This document shows, piece after piece, positions 15,786-64,000 of a DNA stretch of 64,000 nucleotides. This DNA comes from Spirochaetota bacterium. GTDB lineage: Bacteria; Spirochaetota; UBA12135; COTS27. A program made the position numbers and the translations under genes. The notes beneath the pieces are model-generated. The model made no database searches. It worked only from the letters and a program-made list of their open reading frames with translations, and was not told the origin of the DNA. How positions within the stretch are numbered: the stretch's first letter is position 1; each line of letters begins with the position of its first letter. The stretch is from NCBI GenBank assembly GCA_965249715.1, contig CBDFMP010000047.1, positions 128,362 to 192,361 of the forward strand. The letters are read 5' to 3'.

Positions 15786-16420
15786 GCTTAGCGGTGTACG
15801 GTCGCACTGAAAATAAGAGTTTTATGCGCGGCATTTACCTGCTTGTTTTGATAGTTTTAGTCAGTTTACAAGCTTGCGGCAGCGGCAATGATGAACGCTA
15901 TCGTTATTATACCACCACTAACTTAGAACCTACGTCGCTGGAGCTTTCAGTAGCAGACAGCCTGCTCAGTGGGCTAACCATGCCCGGCAAGCTGGAAGCA
16001 TTGCAATGGGAACTGCCGCAGGAATGGAAAACTGTTGAGGCAAGCGGTGTGCGTTTTGCCAACTTTCGCTCTGTTGCCACTAGCGTTGAAACAACGATAG
16101 TGAGTTTTCCGGGTGATGTGGGCACATTGCAAGCTAATGTTGAGCGGTGGCTTAGGCAGATGGAAGCACAGGTATCGCCAACTCTGCTTAATCAGTACCT
16201 GACGCAGCTTATGCCTGCCAGTAATGATCAGGGAATGCGATATGTGAAAATAGATTTAATGGAATTTGCCGCGCAACCGGGCAGTACAGCCATTATTGCA
16301 GTAATCCTCAGGATTGGTGGGCAGAGTGTTTTTATCAAAATGCAAGGCACGCAGCGGCTCTTGACGCGCGAACGCGCTAACTTTGATGTTTTGCTGGCAT
16401 CATTGCAGCTGAGCGTTTAG
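15782..16420 (+). CDS. Hypothetical lipoprotein
   Basis: 212 aa with a 4-bp ATGA overlap onto the icd stop. A signal peptide with lipobox ([15 protein letters not shown]) is present. No recognisable domain. Its last ~36 nt begin the 187-bp repeat array. Confidence 0.55.
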
Positions 16421-17690
16421 GTTGTGCATCCGCGGCAGCTCAACATGTTATTAATGCTTGTTTGCGTTTGGTACGCTGCAAGGTTTTTTTAAACAGGGAA
16501 GACTACGTCTATTGCGGGCAATGAGCTCGTAAACTTGATCACGCAGGCTTGGTTGAATGATGCCTGCTTTTGATGTTTTGCTTGGATCATTGCGGCTGAG
16601 CGTTTAGGTCGTGCATCCGCGGCAGCTCAACATGTTACTAATGTTTGTTTGCGTTTGGCACATTGCAAGGTTTTTTTAAACAGGGAAGACTACGTCTATT
16701 GCGGGCAATGAGCTCGTAAACTTGATCACGCAGACTTGGATGAATGATGCCTGCTTTTGATGTTTTGCTTGGATCATTGCGGCTGAGCGTTTAGGTCGTG
16801 CATCCGCGGCAGCTCAACATGTTATTAATGCTTGTTTGCGTTTGGTACGTTGCAAGTATTTTTTAAACAGGGAAGACTACGTCTATTGCGGGCAATGAGC
16901 TCGTAAACTTGATCGCGCAGGCTTGGAGGCATGATGCCTGCTTTTGATGTTTTGCTTGGATCATTGCGGCTGAGCGTTTAGGTTGTGCATCCGCGGCAGC
17001 TCAACATGTTACTAATGCTTGTTTGCGTTTGGTACGTTGCAAGTGTTTTTTAAACAGGGAAGACTACGTCTATTACGGGCAATGAGCTCGTAAACTTGAT
17101 CGCACAGGCTTGGCTGAATGATGCCTGCTTTTGATGTTTTGCTGGCATCATTGCAGCTGAGCGTTTAGGTTGTGCATCCGCGGCAGCTCAACATGTTATT
17201 AATGCTTGTTTGCGTTTGGTACGCTGCAAGGTTTTTTTAAACAGGGAAGACTACGTCTATTGCGGGCAATGATATCGTAAACTTGATCACGCAGGCTTGG
17301 CTGAATGATGCCTGCTTTTGATGTTTTGCTTGGATCATTGCGGCTGAGCGTTTAGGTTGTGCATCCGCGGCAGCTCAACATGTTACTAATGTTTGTTTGC
17401 GTTTGGCACATTGCAAGGTTTTTTTAAACGGGAAAGACTACGTCTATTGCGGGCAATGAGCTCGTAAACTTGATCACGCAGACTTGGATGAATGATGCCT
17501 GCTTTTGATGTTTTGCTTGCATCATTGCGGCTGAGCGTTTAGGTCGTGCATCCGCGGCAGCTCAACATGTTACTAATACTTGTTTGCGTTTGGCACATTG
17601 CAAGGTTTTTTTAAACGGGAAAGACTACGTCTATTGCGGGCAATGATATCGTAAACTTGATCACGCAGGCTTGAAGGAATGATGCCTGCT
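16385..17690. repeat. Tandem array, 7 copies of a 187-bp unit
   Basis: The unit marker gatgttttgct recurs at 16385, 16572, 16759, 16946, 17133, 17320 and 17507, an exact 187-bp period. Each unit contains the 3' end of the + strand lipoprotein gene and the 3' end of the - strand DCC gene. The copies differ by a few mosaic substitutions. Confidence 0.95.
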
Positions 17691-17983
17691 GCACGCGCAA
17701 AGATCTTCCACCATCCGCCCAGCTCGGTCAGGGCAGCTAAGACCGCTGTACTTTTGGTACGCAGCAGTGAATGTTTACGAAAGACAAGTGTTTGCAATTC
17801 CTGCGTTGGCAGTCCCAAGCTTTTCAGTACTTCGTGACCTTCGGGACTTTGCAATGCCGCATAACTAAGCCGTCTTTTAAGATCACGTTTGCTGAAAAAC
17901 TGGACACTGCTTTGACAAAGCCCGCAATCACTGTCGAAAAAAAGGACAGCAGCTTGAGTGGTTTTACTGGAACGGCGGGTCAT
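17573..17983 (-). CDS. Thiol-disulfide oxidoreductase DCC family (DUF393)
   Basis: 136 aa with N-terminal VLFFDSDCGLCQSSVQFF, the DxxCxxC DCC motif. Its 3' ~115 nt form the last repeat unit. Confidence 0.7.
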   Translation of the reverse strand: MTRRSSKTTQAAVLFFDSDCGLCQSSVQFFSKRDLKRRLSYAALQSPEGHEVLKSLGLPTQELQTLVFRKHSLLRTKSTAVLAALTELGGWWKIFARAAGIIPSSLRDQVYDIIARNRRSLSRLKKPCNVPNANKY

Positions 17984-18118
17984 TTTGTGTTGTTTTATTT
18001 GTCATATAACAGCAAATATTCAGTTCACTGCAGCTAAAGATGCTCAATCATAATATAATATGTTTTATGATTAAAAGCAGAAGCTTTTTACTTTTTATTG
18101 TGAAAGCCTGAGCACTCA

Positions 18119-19423
18119 ATGGAGCAGCAATCGCAGCCGTCACTTCCAGGTGACACCCCGCTCAATACACGTGTTAATACTGAAAGTGCCGTGAGGCATT
18201 TTTTCAGCACCATTACTCTGCAAAAGCTGTTAAAGCAGCTCAGTAGTTTGAACTTGACAGTAATGGCATTGTTTATGCTGTTTTTACTGACACTTCTGGG
18301 CACCTTTTATCAGGTGGAGCATGGGCTGTATGCTGCACAACAACGTTTTTTCTATTCATGGGGGTTTCTGCTCTTCGGATTTATTCCTTTTTTAGGTGCA
18401 AAAACTGTGCTGGGTGTAATGACGGTCAATTTGCTTGCATCGAGTCTTGTGCGTTATAAATTTGAGCCGAAAAAATACGGGATTTTGCTGATTCATTACG
18501 GGCTTAGCTTTTTTTTGGTGGCGTCATTCATTGCCCATTATTTTGTGCGTGAGGCTTATGTTGCTTTGAATGAGGGCGAAAGTACTGGCGCGGCTTATGA
18601 TCATTATGAATCGGAAATTGCTTTATGGGCTGAAACCACTAATGCCAGCGGGCAAATTGAGCGTTCTATGGCAACGTTTGCTGCTGCTGCCATTGTCCCC
18701 GGTCAACCCATTGAACTAAGGGTTCCAGGACACGATGAAATGATTCGCCTTGTCCCCAAGTATTATTATCCGCATGCACGGCCAGCATCCTTTGGTGAAG
18801 CCGATGTGAAAAGTGTAAGTGGATTGACGGCATTGGTTTATGCTCCCCCGCCTAAAAAACGCGAGCAAACTTTCCCCGGTGCGCTTTTTACATTGGAAAC
18901 TGATTATCCACTGAATGTGGATAATGAGAAAAACAATCCCCTGCAAGCTGCAAGGGATGATGTTTTCAGCGCTAAGCTATTGCTCTGGGAGGCTGACCCT
19001 ATTCCTTATGTTCTCACAATGCCCGAAGCTACATTGTATTTGCGCTTGCAACGGAAGCAGTACCCCTTGCCGTTTATTGTGAAGTTAAACGATTTTATCA
19101 AAGAAGATTATTATGGAACAAAACAGGCAAAAAATTACGAAAGTCATGTTGAACTTTTGCGCGGCGATGTGCTTCAGGAAAGTCGTATTTATATGAACAA
19201 CCCCTTGCGTACCGATTATTATACGTTTTTTCAAGCATCATTTGCTCAGGATGCTCAAGGCAATGAGCGCTCTATTTTTGCAGTGGTCTACAATACCGGT
19301 TACTGGGTACCTTATGTTGCAAGTTTGGTGATTGTCCTGGGATTATGTGTGCATTTCATTGTTATGTTTGTTATTCGCATACGCCAGACTGCAATTCAGC
19401 AGCGCGGGGCAACCGCAATGTAG
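18119..19423 (+). CDS. Cytochrome c biogenesis protein ResB/Ccs1 (system II)
   Basis: 434 aa with N-terminal TM helices, a large periplasmic segment and a C-terminal TM helix. It lies immediately upstream of ccsA. The call rests mainly on topology and context. Confidence 0.6.
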   Translation: MEQQSQPSLPGDTPLNTRVNTESAVRHFFSTITLQKLLKQLSSLNLTVMALFMLFLLTLLGTFYQVEHGLYAAQQRFFYSWGFLLFGFIPFLGAKTVLGVMTVNLLASSLVRYKFEPKKYGILLIHYGLSFFLVASFIAHYFVREAYVALNEGESTGAAYDHYESEIALWAETTNASGQIERSMATFAAAAIVPGQPIELRVPGHDEMIRLVPKYYYPHARPASFGEADVKSVSGLTALVYAPPPKKREQTFPGALFTLETDYPLNVDNEKNNPLQAARDDVFSAKLLLWEADPIPYVLTMPEATLYLRLQRKQYPLPFIVKLNDFIKEDYYGTKQAKNYESHVELLRGDVLQESRIYMNNPLRTDYYTFFQASFAQDAQGNERSIFAVVYNTGYWVPYVASLVIVLGLCVHFIVMFVIRIRQTAIQQRGATAM

Positions 19424-35305: not shown

Positions 35306-35322
35306 AATGTTCTTTCCTGAAT

Positions 35323-36036: not shown

Positions 36037-37005
36037 ATGCAGCATTCACATATTGCTGAACTAAGCGGGTTACGCGTTTTGCTAACTAAATTAGCGTCAG
36101 GTGTACTCATAGGAGCACCGCAGTCATTGAAAATGGCGCTGGAACAGTATCCTAAGCTGCTGGGAAAAATTTATAAACCATTGGCAGAGGCGCTGGTACA
36201 TGCAGTCTTAGCGGCTAGGCAGCGTGGGCAGAATTCTCAGGAAGGCAAAATAGCGCCAGCTCCGCTATTGGTGGGCATTAGCGGGGCACAAGGAACAGGC
36301 AAATCTGTGCTTGCAACCATACTGGCTTATTTGCTGAGTACTGGAGCGGGACTACGGACGGCTGTTTTAACATTGGATGATTTTTATCTTAAGAAAGCAG
36401 ATCGCAACAGGCTTGCAGCCACATTGCATCCGCTTTTTCAGACGCGCGGCGTGCCGGGAACACATGATACGGCACTGCTCATGGAAGTTTGGGGCGCACT
36501 CAAACGCGGAAGCCCGCAGCTGTTGGAAGTGCCGATCTTTGCTAAGGGCTTGGATGAGCGCTTAGCGGTCACGCGTAAAATTGAGCTCCCAGTCGAGCTT
36601 GTTTTATTGGAAGGTTGGTGTGTGGGGGCACGTGCGCTCAGTACAGCAGAGCTCACAAAACCCATTAATTCACTGGAAAACAGTGAAGATCGCCTCGGCA
36701 TTTGGCGGCGCACTGTCAATGAGCGCCTTGCTACTCAGTACACGCCCTTGTTCAGTCAGCTGCAATATTTGATCGCCATGCTTCCGCCACGTGCTGACTT
36801 TAATCTGATTTTTCAATATCGCATGGAGCAGGAGCAGTGGCTGCCTGCTAAACAGCGGTTATCACGTAAGACGATGTATCGGTTTATAGCGCATTTTGAA
36901 CGCATTACGCGGCAGCTCTTCAATGACCTGCCCAGACAGGCAGATGCCATTGTCCAGCTGGGAGCCACGCGCGCGGATGCGGAGCTTGTACTAAAGACGG
37001 ACTGA
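36037..37005 (+). CDS. P-loop kinase of the D-glycerate 3-kinase (GLYK/uridine-kinase-like) family
   Basis: 322 aa with Walker A VGISGAQGTGKSVLA, LTLDDFYLKKADR and TRGVPGTHDTALL, resembling plant/cyanobacterial-type glycerate 3-kinases. Confidence 0.6.
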   Translation: MQHSHIAELSGLRVLLTKLASGVLIGAPQSLKMALEQYPKLLGKIYKPLAEALVHAVLAARQRGQNSQEGKIAPAPLLVGISGAQGTGKSVLATILAYLLSTGAGLRTAVLTLDDFYLKKADRNRLAATLHPLFQTRGVPGTHDTALLMEVWGALKRGSPQLLEVPIFAKGLDERLAVTRKIELPVELVLLEGWCVGARALSTAELTKPINSLENSEDRLGIWRRTVNERLATQYTPLFSQLQYLIAMLPPRADFNLIFQYRMEQEQWLPAKQRLSRKTMYRFIAHFERITRQLFNDLPRQADAIVQLGATRADAELVLKTD

Positions 37006-37564
37006 ATGGAAGACAGTTATTTCACTCAAACGCGGAAGCCCGCAGCTGTTGGAAGTGCCGATCTTTGCTAAGGGCTTGGATGAGCGCTTAGCGGTCACGC
37101 GTAAAATTGAGCTCCCAGTCGAGCTTGTTTTATTGGAAGGTTGGTGTGTGGGGGCACGTGCGCTCAGTACAGCAGAGCTCACAAAACCCATTAATTCACT
37201 GGAAAACAGTGAAGATCGCCTCGGCATTTGGCGGCGCACTGTCAATGAGCGCCTTGCTACTCAGTACACGCCCTTGTTCAGTCAGCTGCAATATTTGATC
37301 GCCATGCTTCCGCCACGTGCTGACTTTAAGCAAATTTTTCAATATCGCATGGAGCAGGAGCAGGAGCAGGAGCAGTGGCTGCCTGCTAAACAGCGGTTAT
37401 CACGTAAGACGATGTATCGGTTTATAGCGCATTTTGAACGCATTACGCGGCAGCTCTTCAATGACCTGCCCAGACAGGCAGATGCCATTGTCCAGCTGGG
37501 AGCCACGCGCGCGGATGCGGAGCTTGTACTAAAGACGGACTGAATGGAAGACAGTTATTTCACT
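36497..37564. repeat. Tandem duplication (526 bp + 538 bp) of the 3' half of the kinase gene plus the convergent gene junction
   Basis: Copy 1 is 36497-37022 and copy 2 is 37023-37560. A 4-bp cact lies at both junctions and again at 37561-37564. The copies differ by (GAGCAG)2 versus (GAGCAG)4 and by aatctg versus aagcaa. Confidence 0.95.
37049..37543 (+). pseudogene. Duplicated 3' fragment of the kinase gene
   Basis: This 164-aa ORF is nearly identical to residues ~164-322 of the 36037..37005 product. It carries an EQEQ insertion and lacks the P-loop half. Confidence 0.8.
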
Positions 37565-38163
37565 AAATTATTGATTTTACCGACAGCCGAAAAACATAAA
37601 ACAGCACCCATAAAGTAGCTGATCGTGATGCTTCCCAGTGTTGGGAAGACCACAAAAACCAATCCTATCATCACCAGCAGCAGCGATGAGATTTTTTGCC
37701 ACTGGACGCGCGATAACCGTGCTGGTTTGGCATGCGGACGTTCGTGATCAATCACTCCAGTCGCTTCAGTTGCGGGCGGTTTAAACATACCGACAGCAGA
37801 AAGAAATAACAGGCGAATGACAGCCGCAAAGATGATCAGCAGACCAATGATAATTGAGAAGAGCTTGAGTGATAATAGGGCATTTAAAACTAAAAACAGC
37901 CCTAACAATCCGTCGAATATAGCCGCAAGCGTGTAACCGATATTGCCTTTTCTGAGCCCCTGTACCAAACTGACAATGCTGATGAGCAAGAAGAAGAAAC
38001 CGACGAGCGATATCAAACTTTTTATGCTGCCGACAGGATTGATGAATAAAATGCCGCTGAGTAGGAGAAGAATAATAATCTGCAGCAGTTCCCAGGTGAT
38101 GTCCCAGCTTTTAGTTAAACGCGTACTACGTGATGAGGGAGTTTGTGGTGTTGACATAAACAA
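37555..38163 (-). CDS. Small polytopic membrane protein (HdeD/DUF308-like)
   Basis: 202 aa with 5-6 TM helices of repetitive GxLLxxxG character. No catalytic motif. Confidence 0.4.
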   Translation of the reverse strand: MFMSTPQTPSSRSTRLTKSWDITWELLQIIILLLLSGILFINPVGSIKSLISLVGFFFLLISIVSLVQGLRKGNIGYTLAAIFDGLLGLFLVLNALLSLKLFSIIIGLLIIFAAVIRLLFLSAVGMFKPPATEATGVIDHERPHAKPARLSRVQWQKISSLLLVMIGLVFVVFPTLGSITISYFMGAVLCFSAVGKINNLVK

Positions 38164-40777: not shown

Positions 40778-41227
40778 TTAGGTTTTTTGCTCAGTTAAAC
40801 GCGCCAGTAAGTAGTCAGCGGCTGCAAGATAAACAAATGACCCCATGCCCATGATGATGCCTGCGGCAAGCGGGGCAACATAAGAATGATGACGAAATGT
40901 TTCGCGTTGATAGATATTACTCAGGTGAACTTCTACAATGGGAACTTTGAGCATGCGTAGCGCATCGTGCAGTGCCAGCGATGTGTGTGTCAAGGCACCG
41001 GGGTTAATGATGAGCCCTATTAATGCTGTTTCTGTGATTAATTGCTGAATGAAGTCAATGAGCTTGCCTTCATGATTGCTCTGACAGCTTAACACGCTGA
41101 CGTGTTGGGCGCGTGCGCGTGCGGTCACGGCGGTGATGATGTCGGCAAGTGTTGTTGAGCCGTAGAGCTTGGGCTCGCGTTTGCCCAGTAAATTTAAATT
41201 CGGGCCATTGATGATTGCTAATTTCAT
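40778..41227 (-). CDS. aroQ: 3-dehydroquinate dehydratase, type II
   Basis: The start is reassigned to the ATG at 41227, giving MKLAIINGPNLNLLGKREPKLYG. It also carries NHEG, INPGALTHTS and VEVHLSNI signatures. Confidence 0.9.
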   Translation of the reverse strand: MKLAIINGPNLNLLGKREPKLYGSTTLADIITAVTARARAQHVSVLSCQSNHEGKLIDFIQQLITETALIGLIINPGALTHTSLALHDALRMLKVPIVEVHLSNIYQRETFRHHSYVAPLAAGIIMGMGSFVYLAAADYLLARLTEQKT

Positions 41228-41344
41228 GGAACAAATTACCTTATGAATAATGGTACAGCTGCAATAATAGTACAGTACTGCCATTAATCCAGTGCTTAGG
41301 ATTATACTATGAATAAGTTAGTGCTGCAAACACTGGCGCAGCAT

Positions 41345-42775
41345 CATGACTGGACCAGTACTTGGGGTGTTTTAAAGTGTGCGCAAATAACGAATGACAA
41401 GGGCTGCTGCTGCAGCCACTTCATTGTAAAGATGCAGCGCTTGTTGGTGGCGTAACTGTTCGAATGTTTGTCGATTTTCTATGCCGGGCGCGGAGAAATC
41501 AATATCGCTGATTTTTGCAGCTCCATAATAGCTTGTTGGAGACGCTGCCTGAGCCGCTGGGGTGTTTGTTGTGTTGGCTGCTGTGATGTTGGTGGGTGTA
41601 ACAACGGCTGCGAGTAAGCTTAGCGGCATTTTGGGCTGCTGCCCGATAGCGGTCAATGCGTTCAATCACGGTTTTTGTCGCTTGCACACCATGACTGGAC
41701 CAGTACTTGGGGTGTTTTAAAGTGTGCGCAAATAACGAATGACAAGGGCTGCTGCTGCAGCCACTTCATTGTAAAGATGCAGCGCTTGTTGGTGGCGCAA
41801 CTGTTCGGATGTTTGCTGATTTTCTATGCCGGGCGCGGAGAAATCAATATCGCTAATTTTTGCAGCTCCATAATAGCTTGTTGGAGACGCCGCCTGAGCC
41901 GCTGGGGTGTTTTAGAGTGTGCGCAAATAACGAATGACAAGGGCTGCTGCTGCAGCCACTTCATTGTAAAGGTGCAGCGCTTGTTGGTGGCGCAACTGTT
42001 CGAATGTTTGTCGATTTTCTGTGCCGGGCGCGGAGAAATCAATATCGCTGATTTGATGAAGTGTCTTTTGCATGACGATTGCCACGAATTCTTTTTCAAT
42101 CGCTGGTTTTTGCAGCTCCATAATAGCTTGTTGGAGACGCTGCCTGAGCCGCTGGGGTGTTTTAGAGTGTGCGCAAATAACGAATGACAAGGGCTGCTGC
42201 TGCAGCCACTTCATTGTAAAGATGCAGCGCTTGTTGGTGGCGTAACTGTTCGGATGTTTGCTGATTTTCTGTGACGGGCGCGGAGAAATCAATATCGCTG
42301 ATTTGATGAAGTGTCTTTTGCATGACGATTGCTACGAATTCTTTTTCAATCGCTGGTTTTTGCAGCTCCATAATAGCTTGTTGGAGACGCTGCCTGAGCT
42401 GACGGGGTGTTTTAGAGTGTGCGCAAATAACGAATGACAAGGGCTGCAGCTGCAGCCACTTCATTGTAAAGGTGCAGCGCTTGTTGGTGGCGCAACTGTT
42501 CGGATGTTTGCTGATTTTCTGTGACGGGCGCGGAGAAATCAATATCGCTGATTTGATGAAGTGTCTTTTGCATGACGATTGCCACGAATTCTTTTTCAAT
42601 CGCTGGTTTTTGCAGCTCCATAATAGCTTGTTGGAGACGCTGCCTGAGCTGACGGGGTGTTTGTTGTGCTGGCTGCTGTGATGCTGGTGGGTGTAACAGG
42701 CTGCGAGTAAGCTTAGCGGCATTTTGGGCTGCTGCCCGATAGCGTTCAATGCGTTCAATCACGGTTTTTGTCGCT
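41345..42775. repeat. Nested tandem repeats of the 3' end of the maf-like gene (five copies of the stop-codon-bearing cassette)
   Basis: The terminal cassette (encoding ...LHLYNEVAAAAALVIRYLRTL-stop) recurs, with stops at 41372, 41717, 41912, 42162 and 42412. The spacings are 345, 195, 250 and 250 bp. The copies differ by presence or absence of sub-modules. Confidence 0.95.
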
Positions 42776-44343
42776 TGTTTAAACTTCTCCATGCGCTGTG
42801 GAAATTCTGCTGCCGCGCTGCCGTGACTCTTGTGATAACTTGCAACGGTGTCCTGCAGCCGCTTTCTGAACGCTGATTTATCGATGTTTGTTTGTGCATG
42901 CTTTTTTATGAATGCCGCTAATGGCAGATAGGGAATTCCACTCAAGGGTTGTGCGCGGAGTGAGTTATGATAAAGTGGGAAACTGAGTCCGCTGCTGTTC
43001 TCTTCAAACCAGCGTTTATAAAGCTGCATGGCAGCATCTGTGTAAGCTTGTTTGCCGGCACGTGTGTGCACGGGAACAACGTCCTTGCCGCGCATTATTG
43101 CGAAGATGCGCGTTTCAAAGTTATCGAGACGTTTGATTGAGGCAAACCAATGTTCTTCATGAAAAGCGCCGCGCAGGTGATAACGTTCGCGTGAGTATGC
43201 CAGATCAATGCCCGCCAATGCCACAGCACAGGGCGCGCTGTGTTTTGCTAGCTCAAAGGCAACGGTGGCAACCGAGCCCCCCACTTTCAATATTCCCTTG
43301 CTGCCAAAGAATCCGCATAAGTAGGCATAGTACGGAGAAAAGTTATCAAACATGAAACACAGCGGAAATTTTTTCAGCGCGTGTTTGCTGATGGATGGTT
43401 CGGCTACAAGGGCTGTTTGTGCGGCTGCCTGCGGAGCGGCAGTTTCCAAGTATTTTGCATTTTTCTTCTGTGGATCAATAGAAACTACAATGTCTGCATG
43501 AATGCCGTACTGCTGGAGCGTGGTGTAAGCCGTATCGACGGCGATGATGATAACGTTATTCTGGTGCTGTTTGAGGATTGAAAAATCATCTTCCAAGGAT
43601 GGTGCTGCTCCTGTAATGACCAGCGGCAATGTCTGCAGCAGTTCTGTAAGCTGTGTACTGGGAACGGCGTCTATAATGAAAGCTGTATTTTTGATGAGGT
43701 TCCGCAGCCATAATTGTTCAAACCGCGCAAAGGTAGCGCGATTGATCGCTTTTTCTTCTTGCACAATGCTGACAGCTGCCTGTGTTTGCTGATAAAATGT
43801 ACTTGCAAGCTGCACTTCACGGGTGTTGGCATAAAAACGAATACGTTTAGTGGAATGCTGTTTGAAGATATTGGTGAGTTCCTGTCTAAACTTGCTGTCA
43901 GCGGCATTGGGTGGGGGCAGGGGTGCTGACGCCGCTGCTGCTTGCAGCAGCGGCGTTTGCCAGAAGCTGTAGAATAAGGGTGGTGACGCTTTTATGCGGG
44001 CACTTATGGTTTTAGCCTTTAGCTGTTGAAGACTGAATTTGAGTAATTCTTCAGTTTGACAGATCAGCAGGATAGCTGTTTTGGGGTAGTGGATGAAAGC
44101 TTCGCGGATAAGAGCAATATTGCCGGCACCCAGGATCATAATGAGTGTGGGCAGCTCTGTTGCTGTTTTTAATCCTGTTTCAGCGGGGGATAATCTGCTT
44201 AAAATGCGCGCGGCTTCTGCTTGCGGTGAGTATTTACTGGATAAATAAATGTTTTTGCCCGTCAGCTCTTTGCAGTAAATAACCGCTGTGGGATCGTCTG
44301 CCAGCTGAGCAGGCTGTGTATGGTAGGGACCTTTAAAAGACAC
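42412..44343 (-). CDS. Motility accessory factor (Maf)-like protein, DUF115/MptE-like domain (putative flagellin glycosyltransferase)
   Basis: 643 aa with a GTG start. The N-terminal YLSSKYSPQAEAARIL and central LPLVITGAAPSLEDD...IIIAVDTAYTTLQQYGIHADIVVSIDPQ match the Maf/DUF115 core (GxGPSL...D...DP). Confidence 0.65.
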   Translation of the reverse strand: MSFKGPYHTQPAQLADDPTAVIYCKELTGKNIYLSSKYSPQAEAARILSRLSPAETGLKTATELPTLIMILGAGNIALIREAFIHYPKTAILLICQTEELLKFSLQQLKAKTISARIKASPPLFYSFWQTPLLQAAAASAPLPPPNAADSKFRQELTNIFKQHSTKRIRFYANTREVQLASTFYQQTQAAVSIVQEEKAINRATFARFEQLWLRNLIKNTAFIIDAVPSTQLTELLQTLPLVITGAAPSLEDDFSILKQHQNNVIIIAVDTAYTTLQQYGIHADIVVSIDPQKKNAKYLETAAPQAAAQTALVAEPSISKHALKKFPLCFMFDNFSPYYAYLCGFFGSKGILKVGGSVATVAFELAKHSAPCAVALAGIDLAYSRERYHLRGAFHEEHWFASIKRLDNFETRIFAIMRGKDVVPVHTRAGKQAYTDAAMQLYKRWFEENSSGLSFPLYHNSLRAQPLSGIPYLPLAAFIKKHAQTNIDKSAFRKRLQDTVASYHKSHGSAAAEFPQRMEKFKQATKTVIERIERYRAAAQNAAKLTRSLLHPPASQQPAQQTPRQLRQRLQQAIMELQKPAIEKEFVAIVMQKTLHQISDIDFSAPVTENQQTSEQLRHQQALHLYNEVAAAAALVIRYLRTL

Positions 44344-48019: not shown

Positions 48020-49012
48020 ATGATCGGGCGCAATAAAAACCTGAGTATGGCTTCAAAAGCAGAACACCCTTTGTTTTATCGTTATATTGTTTCGCTGACA
48101 AAACGACGATTGTTTTTGTTGTCATTTGCAACAGTAACAACCGTAGCGGGGGTTTTTTTAAGCGGCTTTTTTTTAGGCGCTGTTTACAATGGGGCGGAGG
48201 CAGCTTATTCGGAGACTGAGTCCCTGGCGTTGCCTGCAGAAACTTTGCCAGTGAATACTGCCGATGGCATGCCGCAAAGTACTGAAGCTGAACCTACTGA
48301 TGTATTCAACAACTTGATCACAAGCAGCGATCCTGTCAATGCTCCCAGTACTTTTAATACCAATGATCTGGTATTTGAAAACATACTTTCGGATGAACAG
48401 CTGGCACAGGAATTCGCTAAAACCAATAATGATCTTCCTCCAAGCAAACAAAACGCTGTCGCTGCCAAACGATCATCAAAATTGTCTAGCAGACAAACAA
48501 CACCAACCACCGGCACGCGCTCAGCTGTGCCTGCTGGTGGCAAACAAGCTAAAACAGCTGTCACTAAGTCTGTTAACCCAACTAAACAAAAGCCTCATGT
48601 AACAAGGTCCATTAAAACGCCTGCCGTTCAGACAGAATATATTAAAGGTGTTTCCGATGTGAATGCACTGAATAAACAACGGGCAGCTTTGTACGAAGAA
48701 TATCCTGTTTCAACAAAAACTTATTATTATCTTCAGCTCATGACCACAAGCGAAGTGGCTAAGGGACGTGTTTTTATAGAAAAATTACGCAACGAAGGTT
48801 TTGCCAGTAAATTAGAAGAAAGTGTTGTAAACGAAACATCACATTATGTTATTTTAATTGGGTTATACAAAGATAAGCTGCAGGCGAAAAAACATCTCAT
48901 GCGTTTTCAGACGGCAGCTCGTTATGGAGGAGCTTTTAAGGACGCATTCATTCGTCCGTACAAACTTGCGCCAGTTTCTGCAGCCAGCTCAAACATTACA
49001 AGCTCTTTGTGA
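48020..49012 (+). CDS. SPOR domain-containing membrane protein
   Basis: 330 aa with an N-terminal TM helix and a low-complexity linker. The C-terminal SPOR-like repeat is YYYLQLMTTSEVAKGRVFIEKLRNEGF...YVILIGLYKDKLQAKKHL. Confidence 0.65.
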   Translation: MIGRNKNLSMASKAEHPLFYRYIVSLTKRRLFLLSFATVTTVAGVFLSGFFLGAVYNGAEAAYSETESLALPAETLPVNTADGMPQSTEAEPTDVFNNLITSSDPVNAPSTFNTNDLVFENILSDEQLAQEFAKTNNDLPPSKQNAVAAKRSSKLSSRQTTPTTGTRSAVPAGGKQAKTAVTKSVNPTKQKPHVTRSIKTPAVQTEYIKGVSDVNALNKQRAALYEEYPVSTKTYYYLQLMTTSEVAKGRVFIEKLRNEGFASKLEESVVNETSHYVILIGLYKDKLQAKKHLMRFQTAARYGGAFKDAFIRPYKLAPVSAASSNITSSL

Positions 49013-49539
49013 ATAACAGCTTAACGGGCACTGCCATAAGTTATCAACATCGCTTGCAGCTGCGGGTTTATTACGGTGATACCGATGCAGGCGGTGTGGT
49101 TTATTATGCCACCTACGGACATTATTTTGAACGCGGCAGAACAGAACTGCTGCGCGCGCTGGATTGCTCCCCCCATGTACTGATGAAAAACTACCACTTG
49201 CTTTTGCCTGTCATAAGCTTAAATGTGCGTTATCATCGTCCCGCCTATTATGAAGATCAGCTCACCTTGGTCACGGAGCTCAACATGCCTACGCCGCTGC
49301 GTTTGCAATATGATTATAAACTTTTCAGAAGTAAGGCTCCCTTGGTGGCAGCAGGCAGCAGCCCGTCGGAGCGCCCGGCAGCTTTAACAAATTCAGCAGC
49401 TTGGGAATTAATTACCAGTGGAAGGACTGTCAATGTGCCCGTTACCGCACAAACAATGCGCCCGCGCCGATTGCCTGCAGAATTGATGACACAGCTGCGG
49501 CAAGCCGCCACGCGTTATTGCGGTAGTTTTCATCGGTGA
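49009..49539 (+). CDS. YbgC/4HBT-family acyl-CoA thioesterase (3' end remodelled by duplication)
   Basis: 176 aa. RVYYGDTDAGGVVYYATYGHYFERGRTELLR is the hotdog thioesterase motif. The last 7 codons (YCGSFHR) derive from antisense sequence of the downstream gene. An ancestral-looking end (...LMTQLQQAATR-stop) survives at 49741-49790. Confidence 0.75.
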   Translation: MNNSLTGTAISYQHRLQLRVYYGDTDAGGVVYYATYGHYFERGRTELLRALDCSPHVLMKNYHLLLPVISLNVRYHRPAYYEDQLTLVTELNMPTPLRLQYDYKLFRSKAPLVAAGSSPSERPAALTNSAAWELITSGRTVNVPVTAQTMRPRRLPAELMTQLRQAATRYCGSFHR

Positions 49540-50205
49540 TCAAGTTGTCTATTGAAATAAAGAGACTCATGCTTTGCAGCTCTTGTTTGAGTAGTTGAAT
49601 AGTATAACGCAGGTCTAAGGTGTTGCGCTTGCGACTGAGCTATTCCGTGACGGTTTGCGCGGCACTGCCATCCATGACAGGGTGAAGTTTGTCGGCATCA
49701 AGAAATGTGTACTGCAATGTGTGGGCAAAAGTAAAAAACGGATTGCCTACAGAATTGATGACACAGCTGCAGCAAGCCGCCACGCGTTAATCTCAGTTGG
49801 TGCTACTTGCAATACAAACTTAGCTTAGAATACATATTCTAAACCCAGTTTCAGTAACCGCAATGTATCGCTCAGGTAAGGGATATTGCGGTAGTTTTCA
49901 TCGGTGATCAAGTTGTCTATTGAAATAAAGAGACTTATGCTTTGCAGCTCTTGTTTGAGTAGTTGAATAGTATAACGCAGGTCTAAGGCGTTACGCTCGC
50001 GACTAATATATTCCGTGACAGTTTGTGCGGCACTGTCATCCAGGACAGCAAAATAGTCGCGGTAACGATAGCGGTAGGTTACCGTCAAGTGTGAGTGTAA
50101 AATATTTTCTTTCAGCTTAAATTCTGTTGTCATTGCCAGGACAGGGTGAAGTTTGTCAGCATCAAGAAATGTGTACTGCAATGTGTGGGCAAATGTAAAA
50201 AACGG
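49469..50205. repeat. Tandem duplication across the thioesterase/OMP convergent junction, with two internal deletions in copy 1
   Basis: 49469-49516 matches 49741-49789. 49516-49672 matches 49885-50043. 49673-49741 matches 50138-50205. Copy 1 lacks the equivalents of 49790-49884 and 50044-50137. Confidence 0.9.
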
Positions 50206-51654
50206 CAAGATGGAAATTCGCAGCTTGTTGAGCAGCTTTGCGCTGTGGTAAGGAGCGCTTAGGCTTGCGGGGATGATATGGAGCACTGCCAGCTGCTCAG
50301 ACGTCAATGCTAAGTGTTCAATGTCGCTCAAATAAAGGCGATGCCCGCCGCTAAGCTCCCAGTGAAGAAGTGTTTGATAACGAACAGCTAAGCTGAAAAA
50401 ATTGCTGAAGTAACGATTGACAATGGGAAATACATTTTCAGCAAATGGCAATGGATGGTGCTCAATGTAAAAATATTCGCCCGCTGTACGTTCAGCAATG
50501 CCATCAATGCCAAAATGCAACTGGACATTGCTGCTAAGCGGTACGGTGAAAGTCATTTGCGGCAGGATGGGGTTGATGCTGTGCCGCTGACTTCCCTCAG
50601 TGTTTTCCAAACGATAAGCCGCGCGGATGCCCAGCTGCAGGGTGAATGCTGAATGCTGAAATTCATAAGTGAATACGGGCGAAAGTAAAAATTCTAAACG
50701 CGTTTCGCCGATAAAACTGCCAAGATCAAGTGCCAACTTGGTTGTGAACGCGTGTTGAATATTTTTATTGAAACTCAGCGCCAGCTGGAAATTGTCTTCA
50801 AAATAATGCATGTTTCGCATAACATCGTCTGTTTGTCCGCGTAAGAATTGGCTTCCATAGTACAGTGTCGATGCTCCGCTTAATAAAAGTTCTGAGACCT
50901 GTGTGCTGGGCAAGGGGATATTGAAATGATAACGAAATGTGGTTTGAAAAAGTGATTGTCTCAGGTTTGTTGCGGGCGACTCTGTGTTTGCGGTGCTAAG
51001 TGTGAAGTCTTGCAGACCGCTGATGGTACTTTGGTGTTTGAGCTGCAGCGTATGGCGATTGTCCGCCAGACTGATGATTTGCTCTAAAAACAATTCAGTC
51101 ACTTCACTGTTTGGAATTGCGTGGATGCCGCCGGTCGTTAATTGGCTGAGCGCCTTGGCATGGCGCGTTGCCAGCTGAAATGCCAGCAGGTTGTTGGAGA
51201 AATAATTGTAAAGCGCCGCTTCAACTACTATTGTGTTTTGCGCACCGAAGGCAATGCTGAGCTCATTGTAGCGCAATTTAGCAGCTTTTTCGTTGTCATC
51301 GCTGGAAGGGCGCTCTGCAATGAAACTCAAGCTGCTTGTGACAAAGTCTAAACTAGCCGCTTCATCTAAGCCCAAATAACGATGTTCGCGTTGATACGGC
51401 GATAATTCCTGCTGATATTCGGTGCGTTTGAGACTTTCCAGCCGCAAGGAACGTTCGGTGAGCGTACTGGCGGCATTAGGCGTTAGTGTAAGTGTATCAA
51501 TGGGCTCCTGAGCGTTTGCTGGCATACTGAGCAATACCAGCAGTACTGACGCGCTTACAACCTTCAGCATGCCGTTGCGTTTGTGTGAAACTACAATGTG
51601 GGAAAAAAATAACATGGCGAGTGTTCGGACGATGCGTGCCAGCTGGAACATCAA
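49825..51654 (-). CDS. Hypothetical outer-membrane beta-barrel-like protein
   Basis: 609 aa with an internal Met at 51570 followed by a signal peptide (MLKVVSASVLLVLLSMPANA-QEP). It shows an alternating-hydrophobic pattern and a C-terminal LKLGLEYVF with terminal Phe. Confidence 0.45.
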   Translation of the reverse strand: MMFQLARIVRTLAMLFFSHIVVSHKRNGMLKVVSASVLLVLLSMPANAQEPIDTLTLTPNAASTLTERSLRLESLKRTEYQQELSPYQREHRYLGLDEAASLDFVTSSLSFIAERPSSDDNEKAAKLRYNELSIAFGAQNTIVVEAALYNYFSNNLLAFQLATRHAKALSQLTTGGIHAIPNSEVTELFLEQIISLADNRHTLQLKHQSTISGLQDFTLSTANTESPATNLRQSLFQTTFRYHFNIPLPSTQVSELLLSGASTLYYGSQFLRGQTDDVMRNMHYFEDNFQLALSFNKNIQHAFTTKLALDLGSFIGETRLEFLLSPVFTYEFQHSAFTLQLGIRAAYRLENTEGSQRHSINPILPQMTFTVPLSSNVQLHFGIDGIAERTAGEYFYIEHHPLPFAENVFPIVNRYFSNFFSLAVRYQTLLHWELSGGHRLYLSDIEHLALTSEQLAVLHIIPASLSAPYHSAKLLNKLRISILPFFTFAHTLQYTFLDADKLHPVLAMTTEFKLKENILHSHLTVTYRYRYRDYFAVLDDSAAQTVTEYISRERNALDLRYTIQLLKQELQSISLFISIDNLITDENYRNIPYLSDTLRLLKLGLEYVF

Positions 51655-53360
51655 TCGAGCTGTTCTAAATAAAGTGATTGTGGAAAACTTGTTTTCAATT
51701 TTTCTTTAAAGCGTGCGCTATCGCGCGCTTTCTGCTGGTGGGTGGCACTCTGTGCGGCAGCGTAGTATAAAAATTCCAAATGCACTTGTTCATCGCCAAA
51801 ATAATCGCTCAGAAAATAAGCTAATGACAATTCATACAGCTTGTCATAGTGTCCGGCACTTAAAAGCGCCTTCATGAGCTCAATAGAAACGACCTTAGCC
51901 ACTGGCCACAGCTCACGGGCATAAACAAGATAAGCCATAGCCTCATCCAATTCCCGTGCAGCAATATGCAAGCGCACAATGCGTTCAGCTCCTTCAGCTT
52001 TCAGTGCAGGTGCATTCAAGGTGCTCAGTTTATCCTTAAGCTCAGCAACTGTCTTCAGGTCAGCAAAGGGACTGCCGGCAGTGAAGCGGTCAATGCGTTC
52101 AATATTTTCTGTCGCTTGTTTATGCAAAGTGTCTATAAATGCAATGCTCTCAGGAAATTGTTTACGGATGGCAGGAACATGTTTGATAATTTTCTGAAAT
52201 TGTCCGTGCGCCACTGTCAAGTTGCCTGCTATTTGTGAATTGAGAATGGCGGCTTCTGTACAAGCTTCCAAGTAAAGCGGTGTGAGCTGCGCAGCGGCTT
52301 CACTTTTGCTGATGACGGCGTGCAGCCAAGTGAGTGCCTCCGCCTGTTCTTGCGATGTTTGCAATTTCAATTTGGCAAGCGCGCCATAAAACCGCGCGTT
52401 GAGTTCCCAACTGAGTTTTTTTGTTGTTTGTGCCTGAGCAATGGACGCTGTGTACACGCGTACAGCAGAGTGCCAGTCCTTGTTGCGATAAAAAAAGTCG
52501 GCAATAGCAGCGTAACTGTCTTCAATGTAAACGCTTTGTGGAAAACGCAGTTCCAATTTGCCGAGAAAATAAAAAGCTTCGCTGGGAGCATTGCTTTTTA
52601 ATTTTACGCGAATGCGTTCGTAATAAGCTTGTTCAAGAATTTCAGCCGGCGGCAGCGTATCGGGATGCTCTTCGGCATTGATAATGCGGATGTATGTTGC
52701 CAGCGCTTTGTTGTACTTGGTTTGATTGAAATAAATATTGGCGAGCTGCAGCAAGGCTTGATAATAGCTGTTGAGGTCTTGCGGGTTCACGCGTTCTAAT
52801 TCTAGGGCGCTGCGTCTGAGCTGATCTGCGCGGAAATAAATTTCTGCGCGTTTGAGCTGTAGGTGATTTTGTGCGGGAATGTCTAACAAGATTTGTGCGG
52901 CGCTGAGCGCTTGCGCGTATTCCGCTAAAGCTTGTTCAGGCTGCGCAAGGTGAATTTCATAAAGCTTGCCCAAGTGTAAGTATGTTTGATAACGTAGCTC
53001 GGTGATGGCACGCGGGGTTAAGGCAGCCGTAACATCATCCGCCAGTGTGGCTGCAGTCGTTAGTAAATTTAAAACTTGACGATAATAAACGATCGCTTTA
53101 TCCGTTGTTCCAGCAATACTGGCAAGTTCTCCCAAGTGGAAAATTGCCTTCACTTGTAAATCCAAGGGTGCGTTGGCTGCGTTGCGTTCATAATAGCGGC
53201 GGGCGGCAGTTGGTTTAGCTTGCCGCAAATAACTAAAGCCGATCAGCTCTGTCAGATAGGCGTACTCACGCGGCTGGTCCAATGCAGCCAGGCGAGGTTC
53301 AAACTTTAGTGCATGGGTTAACGCATCGTTGTAGCGGTTTTTTTTCAATGAACGCTTCAA
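51651..53360 (-). CDS. TPR-repeat protein, C-terminal portion of a probably frameshift-split gene
   Basis: 569 aa, TPR-like (repeated AxxYYxxA/LG patterns). Its only start is a TTG beside the A8 tract, and there is no ATG codon for roughly the first 470 codons. Confidence 0.6.
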   Translation of the reverse strand: MKRSLKKNRYNDALTHALKFEPRLAALDQPREYAYLTELIGFSYLRQAKPTAARRYYERNAANAPLDLQVKAIFHLGELASIAGTTDKAIVYYRQVLNLLTTAATLADDVTAALTPRAITELRYQTYLHLGKLYEIHLAQPEQALAEYAQALSAAQILLDIPAQNHLQLKRAEIYFRADQLRRSALELERVNPQDLNSYYQALLQLANIYFNQTKYNKALATYIRIINAEEHPDTLPPAEILEQAYYERIRVKLKSNAPSEAFYFLGKLELRFPQSVYIEDSYAAIADFFYRNKDWHSAVRVYTASIAQAQTTKKLSWELNARFYGALAKLKLQTSQEQAEALTWLHAVISKSEAAAQLTPLYLEACTEAAILNSQIAGNLTVAHGQFQKIIKHVPAIRKQFPESIAFIDTLHKQATENIERIDRFTAGSPFADLKTVAELKDKLSTLNAPALKAEGAERIVRLHIAARELDEAMAYLVYARELWPVAKVVSIELMKALLSAGHYDKLYELSLAYFLSDYFGDEQVHLEFLYYAAAQSATHQQKARDSARFKEKLKTSFPQSLYLEQLD

Positions 53361-62018: not shown

Positions 62019-63338
62019 GTGTTAAGAAAGTATCGTATTACAGGGGGGCGTCCGCTTAATGGGAAAGTGCAGATTGCGGGCTCCAAGAACGCAGCTCTGC
62101 CCATTTTTGCGGCAACGCTTTTAACCGATGAAGAAGTGATCCTTCGGAATGTGCCGCGCTTGCGTGATACGGATACAATGGCGCGTTTACTGGAAAACCT
62201 GGGCAAAGCAGTGACGCGGACAGCTGATACGGTGGTCATCAAACCCCAGCGCAAACCAGGAACTGCGCCCATCCGTGCAACTTATGAAATTGTCAAGCAG
62301 ATGCGTGCGTCTATTTCTGTCCTTGGGCCTTTATTAGCACGTCATGGACATGTGGAAGTGTCGCTGCCGGGCGGCTGTGTTTTTGGCCCGCGCCCGGTGG
62401 ATCTGCATTTACGCGGGCTGGCACAATTAGGCGCAGATTTAACACTGCGCCATGGCGATATTATTGCAAGTCCGCACGCTAAGCGCTTATGTGGAGGGAA
62501 AGTTGAACTTTTGGGGCCATTTGGAACATCGGTCTTAGCGACAGATAATGTTTTGAGTGCTGCTGTCCTTGCGGACGGAGCTAGTGTATTAATGCATGCG
62601 GCGCGTGAACCTGAGACCTTGGATCTGATTGGATTTTTGCGCACCTTGGGTGCTAAAATTGATACAACTGCCTTAGCCAAACATGGGCGGTTAACAATAG
62701 AAGGGGTGGATAAATTGGGCGGCGGCGAGTACAGGATTATTCCCGATCGCATAGAAGCGGGCAGCTGGCTTTGTTTTATAGGGCTGACGGGCGGCAAGGT
62801 GACGTTGACGGAGCTCAATACTGAGCACTTAACGTTACCGCTGGCGCGGCTGCGCGCCAGCGGTTTTCAGTATGAAGAAACAAAGGCGGCTGACGGTCTG
62901 AGCCAGTTGCAAGTGACGGCACCGCTGCTTGCTGATACAACGCCGCTGGATATTACAACCGGCGCTTACCCGGGATTTCCAACGGATCTGCAGCCGCTGT
63001 TTATGGCGCTTGCTACCGTTTTTCCCGGGCGTTCGCGATTTTGTGAACGCATTTATCCCAATCGTTTCAATCACGCCCCGGAGTTGACGCGCATGGGTGC
63101 ACAAATTACGGTGACCAGGGATTGTGCCGAGGTGACCGGTGTAACAGGATTGGACGGCGCGCGCGTACAGGCTTCGGATCTGCGTGCAGGTGCAGCCTTA
63201 GTAGGGGCTGCGCTTGCTGCTAGCGGGGAGAGCGAGCTTAAACGGATTTATCACATTGAGCGCGGTTATGAGAATTTATTACCCAAATTACGTTCACTAG
63301 GAGCCAACATTGAGGTGTTTGCTGATCCCGTTTTATGA
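62019..63338 (+). CDS. murA: UDP-N-acetylglucosamine 1-carboxyvinyltransferase
   Basis: 439 aa with a GTG start. ITGGRPLNGKVQIAGSKNAALPI, the EPSP-synthase-fold repeat pattern and the C-terminal HIERGYENLLPKLRSLGA are all typical of MurA. Confidence 0.92.
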   Translation: MLRKYRITGGRPLNGKVQIAGSKNAALPIFAATLLTDEEVILRNVPRLRDTDTMARLLENLGKAVTRTADTVVIKPQRKPGTAPIRATYEIVKQMRASISVLGPLLARHGHVEVSLPGGCVFGPRPVDLHLRGLAQLGADLTLRHGDIIASPHAKRLCGGKVELLGPFGTSVLATDNVLSAAVLADGASVLMHAAREPETLDLIGFLRTLGAKIDTTALAKHGRLTIEGVDKLGGGEYRIIPDRIEAGSWLCFIGLTGGKVTLTELNTEHLTLPLARLRASGFQYEETKAADGLSQLQVTAPLLADTTPLDITTGAYPGFPTDLQPLFMALATVFPGRSRFCERIYPNRFNHAPELTRMGAQITVTRDCAEVTGVTGLDGARVQASDLRAGAALVGAALAASGESELKRIYHIERGYENLLPKLRSLGANIEVFADPVL

Positions 63339-63342
63339 GAGC

Positions 63343-63697
63343 TTAGGCATGAGTTTGTTTCAGCTTTTGAATAAAGTCGCCGAGCGGTTTTAAGTGCTCC
63401 CAGACCGTTTTTTTAAGTGTTGGATCATTGATCAGTTCACGCGGGTGTTCGGTATAAAGAATTTGACTGTTTTCGTACGGCAATAATTGTCCTTGGCTGG
63501 CACTGAAAGCTTTTAAAATACTGCAGGCAAACATTGAGCGCGTCCAGCTGATTGGAGAGCTCTTCAACGGCTGAACATTTGACGGCAGTTGTGATATAAA
63601 CACTGTTGGCGTCGATGCCAAGGGCGCTAATGATTTTTAGCAGTACTTGACCGTCTGCGGTGGTGAACAGCCGCCCTTGCAGTTGATCGCTCCAGTT
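63343..63697 (-). pseudogene. Duplicated, internally deleted 3' fragment of the uracil-DNA glycosylase gene
   Basis: The C-terminal 53 aa of ORF 63343..63621 equal the UDG C-terminus (SQGQLLPYENSQILYTEHPRELINDPTLKKTVWEHL...). Upstream sequence encodes GRLFTTADGQVLLKIISALGIDANSVYITTAVKC in another frame, so it is frameshifted by the deletion. Confidence 0.75.
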
Positions 63698-63726
63698 GGT
63701 GTTTGCTGACCCCGTTTTATGAGAGC

Positions 63727-64000
63727 TTAGGCATGAGTTTGTTTCAGCTTTTGAATAAAGTCGCCGAGCGGTTTTAAGTGCTCCCAGACCGTTTTTTTAA
63801 GTGTTGGATCATTGATCAGTTCACGCGGGTGTTCGGTATAAAGAATTTGACTGTTTTCGTACGGCAATAATTGTCCTTGGCTGGTACTGAAAGCTTTTTT
63901 GCCGCTGAGCAGCCGATAAGTATTTTCACCGAAAGCAATAATAAGCTGAGGTTTGATTAATTTTACTTCGCTATGAAAATACTGCAGACAAACATTGAGC
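63727..64000 (-). CDS. Uracil-DNA glycosylase family 4/5-type, partial (runs off window)
   Basis: My own translation gives ...CLQYFHSEVKLIKPQLIIAFGENTYRLLSGKKAFSTSQGQLLPYENSQILYTEHPRELINDPTLKKTVWEHLKPL...-stop. The layout is UDG family-4-like (LG..A...L ... T.HP..L..P..K...W.DL). Confidence 0.65.
   Translation of the reverse strand, partial: LNVCLQYFHSEVKLIKPQLIIAFGENTYRLLSGKKAFSTSQGQLLPYENSQILYTEHPRELINDPTLKKTVWEHLKPLGDFIQKLKQTHA

Follow-up and report, generated by a model that had tools for sequence, protein, structure and literature searches.

The subject of this analysis is a set of tandem duplications at gene ends in a 64,000-nt stretch of DNA (hereafter the window) from a member of the Spirochaetota (assembly GCA_965249715.1, contig CBDFMP010000047.1, positions 128,362 to 192,361). 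Repeats were called with Tandem Repeats Finder (TRF), a direct-repeat search and an all-against-all blastn comparison (E≤1e-5), and were set against a map of 50 mechanically called open reading frames (ORFs), which makes the window ~86% coding and defines six convergent, 37 co-directional and six divergent gene junctions. The three methods agree: repeated DNA occurs in five places, here labelled L1 to L5, and in each it is local and arranged head-to-tail. Four of the five span the ends of two convergent genes; the fifth (L3) repeats a gene 3′-end between two co-directional genes. By blastn the window has neither dispersed nor inverted repeats, and the loci show no similarity to one another.

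The closest named match for the MurA of the window is that of COTS27 (63% identity; 57% for the PBP), and gene order is kept over at least 30 kb. By protein similarity and gene order, then, the organism is a relative of COTS27, the crown-of-thorns starfish spirochaete, within the host-associated ‘marine spirochaete’ clade. Two relatives recur below: COTS27 itself (AP019861 967636–1011141; L001/L002 and L082) and GCA_030621685.1 (L083).

Each repeated unit is a copy of the unique sequence beside it, and at all loci the outermost copies continue unbroken into intact genes. Original units measure 187 to ~526 bp and the copies are 92–100% identical over the five loci. At the four convergent loci, where the ancestral spacers were 4–34 nt, the present spacers are 285–1152 nt. 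Microhomology at the unit junctions amounts to 0 nt at L1, 4 nt (CACT) at L2, 9 nt (GGGGTGTTT) for the 250-bp unit of L3, 1 nt at L4 and at least 2 nt at L5, a lower bound because the right-hand junction site falls outside the window. There are four internal deletions (96 bp in L3, 94 and 87 bp in L4, ~90 bp in L5), all of them within non-functional fragments and none in the body of an outer gene; two of the four are flanked by direct repeats of 7–9 nt (ATCGCTG in L3, the imperfect CCAGGACAG in L4). The outer gene copies are full length by comparison with orthologues or with Pfam and NCBIfam profiles, murA, aroQ and the DCC1-like gene being covered to the profile ends.

A first-pass annotation of the window had described five independent tandem duplications with units of 187 to ~530 bp, four at convergent ends and one at a gene 3′-end, which were later altered by deletion between short direct repeats or by microsatellite change. 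All of this holds: the five loci were recovered with nothing besides, and to the two repeat-flanked deletions can be added a GGAGCA microsatellite difference in L2. Two further statements need qualification. The genes at the outer edges are intact by orthologue and Pfam alignment, save that the ybgC-like gene of L4 has lost its stop codon and gained seven residues. The copies, which had been called recent, are 99–100% identical at L2 and L5, whereas those of L1 differ by up to 9% (17/187 sites).

The loci are ordinary chromosomal DNA and not copies of an element. A search for common boundary motifs or hairpins, proposed in the same annotation, returned none: no breakpoint motif, structure or hairpin is shared across the window loci. 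Nor were terminator-like hairpins found at the duplicated convergent junctions. The units give no indication of structured RNA (fold z-scores of +0.5 to +1.3; no Rfam match), domain searches found no mobility or transposase genes and no cas domains in the window, and the 64 kb contain no N bases, no tRNAs and no Rfam matches. Sensitive blastn and tblastx comparisons with the flanks revealed no older, decayed duplications in the 14 other window spacers, which implies that the detectable events are all fairly young (≤~9% divergence).

The five duplicated loci

L1 is an array of seven 187-bp units (16382..17690), 92–99% identical, with 24 variable sites and no indels. In each unit the 3′-terminal 39 nt of a forward-strand lipoprotein gene and the 3′-terminal 118 nt of a reverse-strand DCC1-like gene flank a spacer of 30 nt. 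On the left, the predicted lipoprotein (15782..16420, +; 212 aa, with a signal peptide, a lipobox-like LQAC and no Pfam match) has its real 3′-end in unit 1; on the right, the DCC1-like thiol-disulfide oxidoreductase (17573..17983, −; 136 aa, PF04134 matched at 1–112/113) has its real 3′-end in unit 7. The variation has the look of scattered substitutions, about two thirds of them transitions. Units 1 and 5, like units 2 and 6, differ at three sites and other pairs at 8–17; this near-identity points to a later reduplication of a block of units.

Two small features of L1 deserve mention. Unit positions 171–175 (window 16552–16556 in the first unit) form a cluster with three alleles among the seven units, which alters the C-terminal peptide of the copied DCC1-like end (IIQP, IIHP, IMPP, IIPS) and may be due to chance or to a mutational hotspot. 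At 17117–17152 one unit junction is crossed by a 12-nt inverted repeat (AATGATGCCTGC / GCTGGCATCATT), in a single unit pair only. Its arms would have adjoined both breakpoints in a single-copy ancestor; it is probably a chance occurrence.

L2 consists of two copies. The first (36497..37022) is 526 bp long and comprises the last 509 nt of a kinase-like gene, an 11-nt spacer and ~10 nt of the tail of a DUF308 gene; the second (37023..37567) holds a promoterless fragment of the kinase-like gene, called mechanically as an ORF at 37049–37543, and then the real DUF308 tail. The copies differ solely in a microsatellite, (GGAGCA)2 in copy 1 against (GGAGCA)4 in copy 2, and in one 5-nt cluster. In that cluster copy 1 reads TCTGA (36804–36808) and copy 2 GCAAA (37330–37334); with four positions differing it looks like a single multi-nucleotide event, not separate substitutions. 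The left outer gene encodes a P-loop kinase-like protein (36037..37005, +; 322 aa) with weak nucleoside-kinase matches, which aligns with its GCA_030621685.1 orthologue to residue 317/322. The right outer gene encodes a DUF308/HdeD-like membrane protein (37555..38163, −) identified by domain matches, with orthologues in both relatives (L082 and L083).

At L4 (49469–50205) the original unit was 465 bp with a 34-nt spacer. Copy 2 (49741..50205) preserves the undeleted 465 bp, in which 49 nt from the ybgC-like tail, still with their original stop codon, are followed by the 34-nt spacer and then by the genuine final 381 nt of the reverse-strand gene. Copy 1 (49469..49740) has shrunk to 272 bp, lacking 94 and 87 bp relative to copy 2, and joins the real ybgC-like tail to part of the outer-membrane-like gene. 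Imperfect 9-nt repeats bound the 87-bp deletion; in copy 2 the repeat reads CCAGGACAG, and the retained copy is CCATGACAG. The left outer gene, a ybgC-like acyl-CoA thioesterase with a profile match (49009..49539, +), now ends in seven extra residues (YCGSFHR) because the 94-bp deletion took its stop codon. The right outer gene, for an outer-membrane-like protein of 609 aa (49825..51654, −), ends in LEYVF and aligns with its COTS27 orthologue to the last residue.

L5 joins murA (62019..63338, +), which is intact and covers profile positions 3–416/419, to a convergent UDG gene. Its period is 384 bp, its copies are 99% identical, and it extends ~440 nt into the UDG gene. Copy 1 (63314..63697) contains the final 25 nt of murA and, across a spacer of 4 nt, a UDG fragment that lacks ~90 bp, so that the original unit would have been ~475 bp. 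Copy 2 (63698..64000) begins with a 25-nt fragment of the murA tail, runs into the real UDG 3′-end and continues past the window edge; the part of UDG inside the window matches PF03167 at 70–141/141.

The remaining locus, L3 (41338–42777), lies between two reverse-strand genes and is made up of the real 3′-end of an MptE-like gene together with four partial copies of that end (41338..42411, −), each with its own stop codon, in units of 250 and 346 bp. The source is the last ~366 nt of the gene, which encodes an MptE-like (Maf/PseD-like) protein of 643 aa (42412..44343, −) that aligns with its COTS27 orthologue to the last residue. The copies occupy a former ~87-nt spacer upstream of aroQ (type II 3-dehydroquinate dehydratase, profile match; 40778..41284, −), itself untouched. 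The 9-mer at the 250-bp junction, GGGGTGTTT, has one site within the MptE-like gene and one directly after its stop codon; in the older 346-bp units, 96 bp were lost between ATCGCTG repeats. The MptE-like/Maf-type gene (42412–44343), whose tail is the source of the L3 repeat, is listed beside the flagellar genes of the window, which fall in 1983–2825 and 31549–35416 (flagellin, FliW, a flagellin-like FlgL candidate and FlgK).

Fragments such as those at 37049–37543 and 41912–42292 would be called as small ORFs, and are best treated as pseudogene debris.

Frequency, placement and relatives

Duplications are present at four of the six convergent junctions, at one of the 37 co-directional junctions and at none of the six divergent ones. 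For the window this is a clear enrichment (Fisher p = 3.4e-4), as the first-pass annotation, which had called for the test, led one to expect. It had also judged the density of such duplications to be far above expectation, and comparison with control loci from other bacteria bears this out. Eighty murA neighbourhoods (1.22 Mb), put through the self-alignment used for the window, yielded four local repeats at an offset of at least 150 bp, and at least one of these (L067) repeats coding sequence within a gene; nothing of the kind came from 80 neighbourhoods of kinase-like homologues (0.44 Mb). Comparable duplications number 3–4 in the 1.22–1.66 Mb of controls against five in the 64 kb of the window, that is, 78 per Mb against 2–3 per Mb (≥20-fold; Poisson P 2e-7 to 3e-6), although the control background is probably underestimated, many control contigs being short-read assemblies prone to break at repeats.

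Two long-period TRF matches in the control loci were rejected. One, at a locus edge in Brachyspira pulli (L032, 10–1109), is a CRISPR array with the repeat ATTTATATTCCAGTATGGATAGATTAGAAAC; the other, also from Brachyspira (L029), reflects TPR coding repeats. A further control locus, from Brachyspira hampsonii 30446 (L020, 8737–9789), contains a real non-coding array of 3 × 350 bp (83% matches; no Rfam match), which lies in the divergent spacer directly preceding murA.

The placement of the duplications was compared with a model in which units of the observed sizes are placed uniformly on the reconstructed ancestral gene map. Placements were counted as harmless where they join two convergent 3′-ends (3′/3′), take in a 3′-end plus spacer, or lie in a spacer only. 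Of the modelled placements 50–76% fall within one gene, 15–39% copy a 5′ gene fragment and 9–11% are harmless; the harmless class holds all five of the observed duplications (P ~1e-5).

The tendency to accumulate tandem repeats extends to COTS27. Its genome (2.68 Mb, 1650 genes) has no detected transposable elements or prophages, and the paper describing it attributes assembly gaps to genic tandem repeats and is silent on intergenic ones (PMC7444263). Over the 43.5 kb analysed, TRF finds arrays in 15 of 24 COTS27 intergenic regions, mostly with periods of 10–38 bp (range 10–114 bp), and arrays make up 11.5% of L002 (21 kb) against a median of 0.23% in 80 other bacterial loci.

A comparison with sister genomes, likewise proposed in the first-pass annotation, shows that both relatives carry a duplication of their own at the junction matching L2. 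In COTS27 this is 2 × 111 bp, 96% identical, beginning 10 nt before the DUF308 stop codon (L082 19299–19511). In GCA_030621685.1 it is 2 × 134 bp, 91% identical (L083 11532–11802), with a unit that runs from 8 nt past the DUF308 stop codon to 60 nt within the convergent kinase-like gene. Since the unit lengths (111, 134 and 526 bp) and the boundaries differ, these are separate, or remade, events. At this place in COTS27 no convergent kinase-like gene is called, and ~1 kb of unannotated DNA is found instead.

Repeats also occur in relatives at two other matching junctions. A 23-bp array fills the spacer between the outer-membrane-like and thioesterase genes of COTS27 (the L4 junction), and the murA/UDG spacer of GCA_030621685.1 (the L5 junction) contains a 25-bp repeat in two copies. 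The murA/UDG spacer of COTS27 is 83 nt long and free of repeats, so that L5 is derived in the lineage of the window. Four loci from more distant spirochaetes contained no comparable duplications.

Some other features of the window may be recorded here. Same-strand ORFs of the mechanical map overlap by 32–94 nt at 30215–30282, 35323–35416, 53299–53360 and 60484–60515; start codons further downstream are probably the true ones, and only the mapped spacer lengths are affected. A 172-aa ORF (9575–10093, −) covers positions 1–89 of a 221-position N6/N4 DNA methylase profile and is probably a truncated remnant; a relative (L166) has a full methylase with a ThaI-like restriction enzyme at another place. 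At one of the convergent junctions without a duplication (27767–29271, +), an unannotated ORF of 305 aa precedes one whose product has a SocA/Panacea antitoxin domain, and the two may form a toxin–antitoxin pair.

Probable slippage and survivorship, and the alternatives

We think it probable, if far from certain, that the five loci are independent tandem segmental duplications of the slippage type, that their positions are mainly a matter of survivorship, and that they accumulate in a lineage that keeps its junk. From the head-to-tail copies, the junctions of 0–9 nt, the deletions at repeats of 7–9 nt and the block reduplication we infer RecA-independent slippage or template switching. Replication would slip, or switch template, between two sites some hundreds of bases from each other that have short homology or none, and the intervening stretch would thereby be copied head-to-tail. 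The arrays of L1 and L3 would then have expanded by unequal exchange between copies, and dead copies would shed pieces by further slippage at direct repeats of 7–9 nt.

What survives would depend on where the ends fall. With both ends in the 3′ parts of two convergent genes, both genes would stay whole; a duplication that runs from a gene 3′-end into the spacer behind it would likewise leave the gene whole. The new junction would then carry only fragments that lack a promoter or start codon. About 90% of placements, by contrast with these, would break a gene or copy a 5′-end with its expression signals. Among gene boundaries only the convergent kind would let a duplication of several hundred bases produce nothing but fragments that lack a promoter or start codon, and with convergent spacers of 4–34 nt such a duplication must enter both genes. 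With 9–11% harmless placements expected and five of five seen, a survivorship filter explains most of the placement. The high density, for its part, would be a trait of the lineage, in which tandem repeats either form easily or are seldom purged.

The first-pass annotation had put forward both a slippage- or microhomology-based process focused on zones of convergence and selection that tolerates only promoterless junction fragments. Slippage is well matched by the junctions and by the repeats at deletions; the focus on convergence comes down to residual signals (p = 0.024 and 0.053, below). Selection of the kind described accounts for most of the placement and leaves a weak convergent excess over.

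Several points weigh against survivorship as the whole account. Copy divergence of up to 9% would be surprising if homologous recombination clears tandem repeats fast, and calls for weak deletion pressure; recA and other repair genes lie outside the window. The pattern is drawn from 64 kb of one genome and from assembly sequence alone, the near-identical L2 and L5 included. Among harmless placements, convergent ones are expected to make up 15–40%, depending on unit size, and four of five were seen (P(≥4 of 5) = 0.024). Each of the four convergent loci has one boundary 10–49 nt from a stop codon (combined p = 0.053). Finally, the junction between the DUF308 and kinase-like genes is duplicated in three genomes, with a boundary near the DUF308 stop codon each time. 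The residual signals are weak, though a local mutational bias may act in addition to the filter; the convergent excess among harmless placements would vanish if co-directional duplications within operons were not really harmless.

The last three of these points are also what a mutational hotspot would predict, an explanation that we regard as rather unlikely. On this explanation RNA polymerases would collide with one another, or replication forks with head-on transcription, at convergent ends that have no intrinsic terminator and next to no spacer; forks would stall near stop codons and restart by template switching, and duplications would be formed there by preference instead of only surviving there. 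The ancestral spacers of the four convergent loci, short and devoid of terminator-like hairpins, are of the right kind; the convergent excess persists even within the harmless class; the boundaries near stop codons occur at every convergent locus; and the DUF308/kinase-like junction has been duplicated in three diverged genomes, with a boundary no more than ~10 nt from the DUF308 stop codon in each. GC skew, moreover, is positive along the entire window, which by the usual rule sets reverse-strand genes head-on to replication, and each locus includes the 3′-end of a reverse-strand gene. The signals are nevertheless marginal, coming from five events, and the filter model probably overrates harmlessness at co-directional junctions within operons, a bias whose correction would erase what excess is left. 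Of the six convergent junctions, two are free of duplication, one of them with a spacer of 21 nt; the breakpoints have no motif or structure in common; and in COTS27 the arrays occur in spacers of every type, divergent ones included.

A broader version, in which near-spacerless and terminator-less convergent ends are true hotspots throughout the ‘marine spirochaete’ clade, re-duplicated across lineages and seeding the long spacers of COTS27, seems to us a little less likely again. Were a hotspot behind the recurrence in three genomes, the growth of spacers would be tied to convergent transcription; were it a property of the clade, bacterial non-coding DNA would have a means of growing that is linked to transcription and follows a new positional rule.

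It is improbable that the duplications have been retained because they are useful, whether as buffer DNA between convergent genes that lack terminators or as stored cassettes for alternative C-termini. The widening of spacers from 4–34 to 285–1152 nt at four such junctions would suit a buffer, as would the presence of repeats in the same spacers of relatives, and L1 is old enough for its copies to have diverged by up to 9% and has a multi-allelic cluster (171–175) in the copied DCC1-like C-terminus. Yet the genes concerned are housekeeping or cytoplasmic (murA, UDG, thioesterase, kinase-like) and not surface antigens, unit lengths of 187, 250 and 526 bp are not divisible by three, and the arrays are not spanned by any long ORF; the variation looks like scattered substitutions, some two thirds of them transitions, and the fragments are decaying by deletion.

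An assembly artefact, with strain variants or mis-joined reads placed side by side in a metagenome-assembled contig, is very improbable, if less decidedly so for the near-identical L2 and L5: the 99–100% identity of the copies at L2 and L5 and the microsatellite difference at L2, which could represent two strain alleles, would fit it, and no independent assembly of the organism was found (an exact 28-mer search of JGI metagenomes gave no match), but the seven copies of L1 and five of L3 carry distinct substitutions, unlike two collapsed haplotypes, the boundaries coincide with microhomologies and with gene 3′-ends and functional copies are spared by the deletions, to all of which an assembler is blind, and duplications of this kind are present at an orthologous junction in two relatives that were assembled independently.

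Comparison with known systems

Repetitive extragenic palindromic sequences and bacterial interspersed mosaic elements (REP/BIME), miniature inverted-repeat transposable elements (MITEs) and CRISPR arrays resemble the window loci in that they too are found between convergent genes, as repeated DNA in spacers at gene ends. The first-pass annotation had set the loci apart from these and from transposase-associated elements, correctly so, the defining features of all of them being absent. REP/BIME and MITE families are rejected by the lack of similarity between loci, by the lack of consistent palindromes or terminal inverted repeats and by the fold z-scores (+0.5 to +1.3); a CRISPR array, with repeats of 24–48 nt, by contiguous units of 187–526 bp without unique spacers and without cas domains. 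A mobile element of another kind is equally inapt: the loci have no shared sequence, no terminal inverted repeats and no mobility genes. The further suggestion, in the first-pass annotation, of an undescribed class of element was misleading: the units are local unique sequence with no common motif, hairpin or structure, and the growth of spacers by repeats is already known (PMC10710844, PMC3673631). Silent-cassette antigenic variation of the vls, tprK or msp2 type was also considered and rejected, as five unrelated and mostly housekeeping genes are involved, the units combine two genes and their spacer, and the lengths (187, 250 and 526 bp) cannot be divided evenly by three.

In mechanism, the nearest likeness is to the RecA-independent duplications of Salmonella and E. 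coli, which are head-to-tail, have 0–10 nt of homology at their junctions, grow by unequal exchange and are lost by deletion. The window loci share with them head-to-tail copies of unique sequence, microhomology junctions and later expansion. Duplications studied in the laboratory, however, usually cover anything from kilobases to hundreds of kilobases, owe their selection to gene dosage and soon disappear, whereas the units of the window are smaller than a gene, include no whole gene and have lasted long enough to reach divergences of up to 9%.

In outcome, the closest parallels are found among host-associated bacteria. Ehrlichia ruminantium has long intergenic regions in which non-coding tandem repeats actively expand and contract (reviewed in PMC10710844). 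As in the window, the setting is a host-associated bacterium without transposable elements, in which spacers grow by head-to-tail units of ~100–500 bp. The studies of Collins and colleagues (2005) and Frutos and colleagues (2006) are said to describe units of ~150 bp and truncated gene fragments associated with the repeats. The key observation in Ehrlichia is that copy number varies from strain to strain. Many independent tandem arrays in the absence of mobile elements, a feature of Ehrlichia, are also present here: five arrays in 64 kb without mobility genes, and repeats in 15 of 24 spacers of COTS27. Low coding density is a feature of COTS27 and not of the window (~86% coding). The two systems differ also in belonging to the Alphaproteobacteria and the Spirochaetota respectively, and in that units of the window span the 3′-ends of two convergent genes. 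We know of no report of a positional rule for convergent 3′-ends in Ehrlichia, and full-text literature searches returned no convergent-junction rule for bacterial tandem duplications in general, an absence that is not proof.

Portiera aleyrodidarum from Bemisia tabaci underwent a lineage-specific burst of intergenic tandem repeats (Sloan and Moran 2013, PMC3673631). The burst was read as the result of relaxed deletion bias, of the loss of replication and repair genes, or of both, the choice between tolerance and mutation rate being left open (PMC3673631). A repeat burst limited to intergenic DNA in a symbiont without mobile elements closely resembles what is seen in COTS27. It differs from the window in that the Portiera repeats are mostly microsatellites with a peak at 7 bp, whereas here units of 187–526 bp are made from the ends of genes.

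Bacterial genomes are normally kept compact by deletion bias, yet a few host-associated lineages, E. ruminantium, Portiera from B. tabaci and COTS27 among them, have come to have long spacers. The window appears to show an early stage of the process in a genome that is still compact: spacers have gone from 4–34 to 285–1152 nt in single steps, and each added base can still be traced to its source. It is also a tidy case, provided by nature, in which the sites where structural variants are seen depend on whether the mutation does harm. Set beside Ehrlichia and Portiera, the window differs in its phylum, in the construction of units from gene ends and in their clear positional rule, at convergent junctions, in a genome that is still compact.

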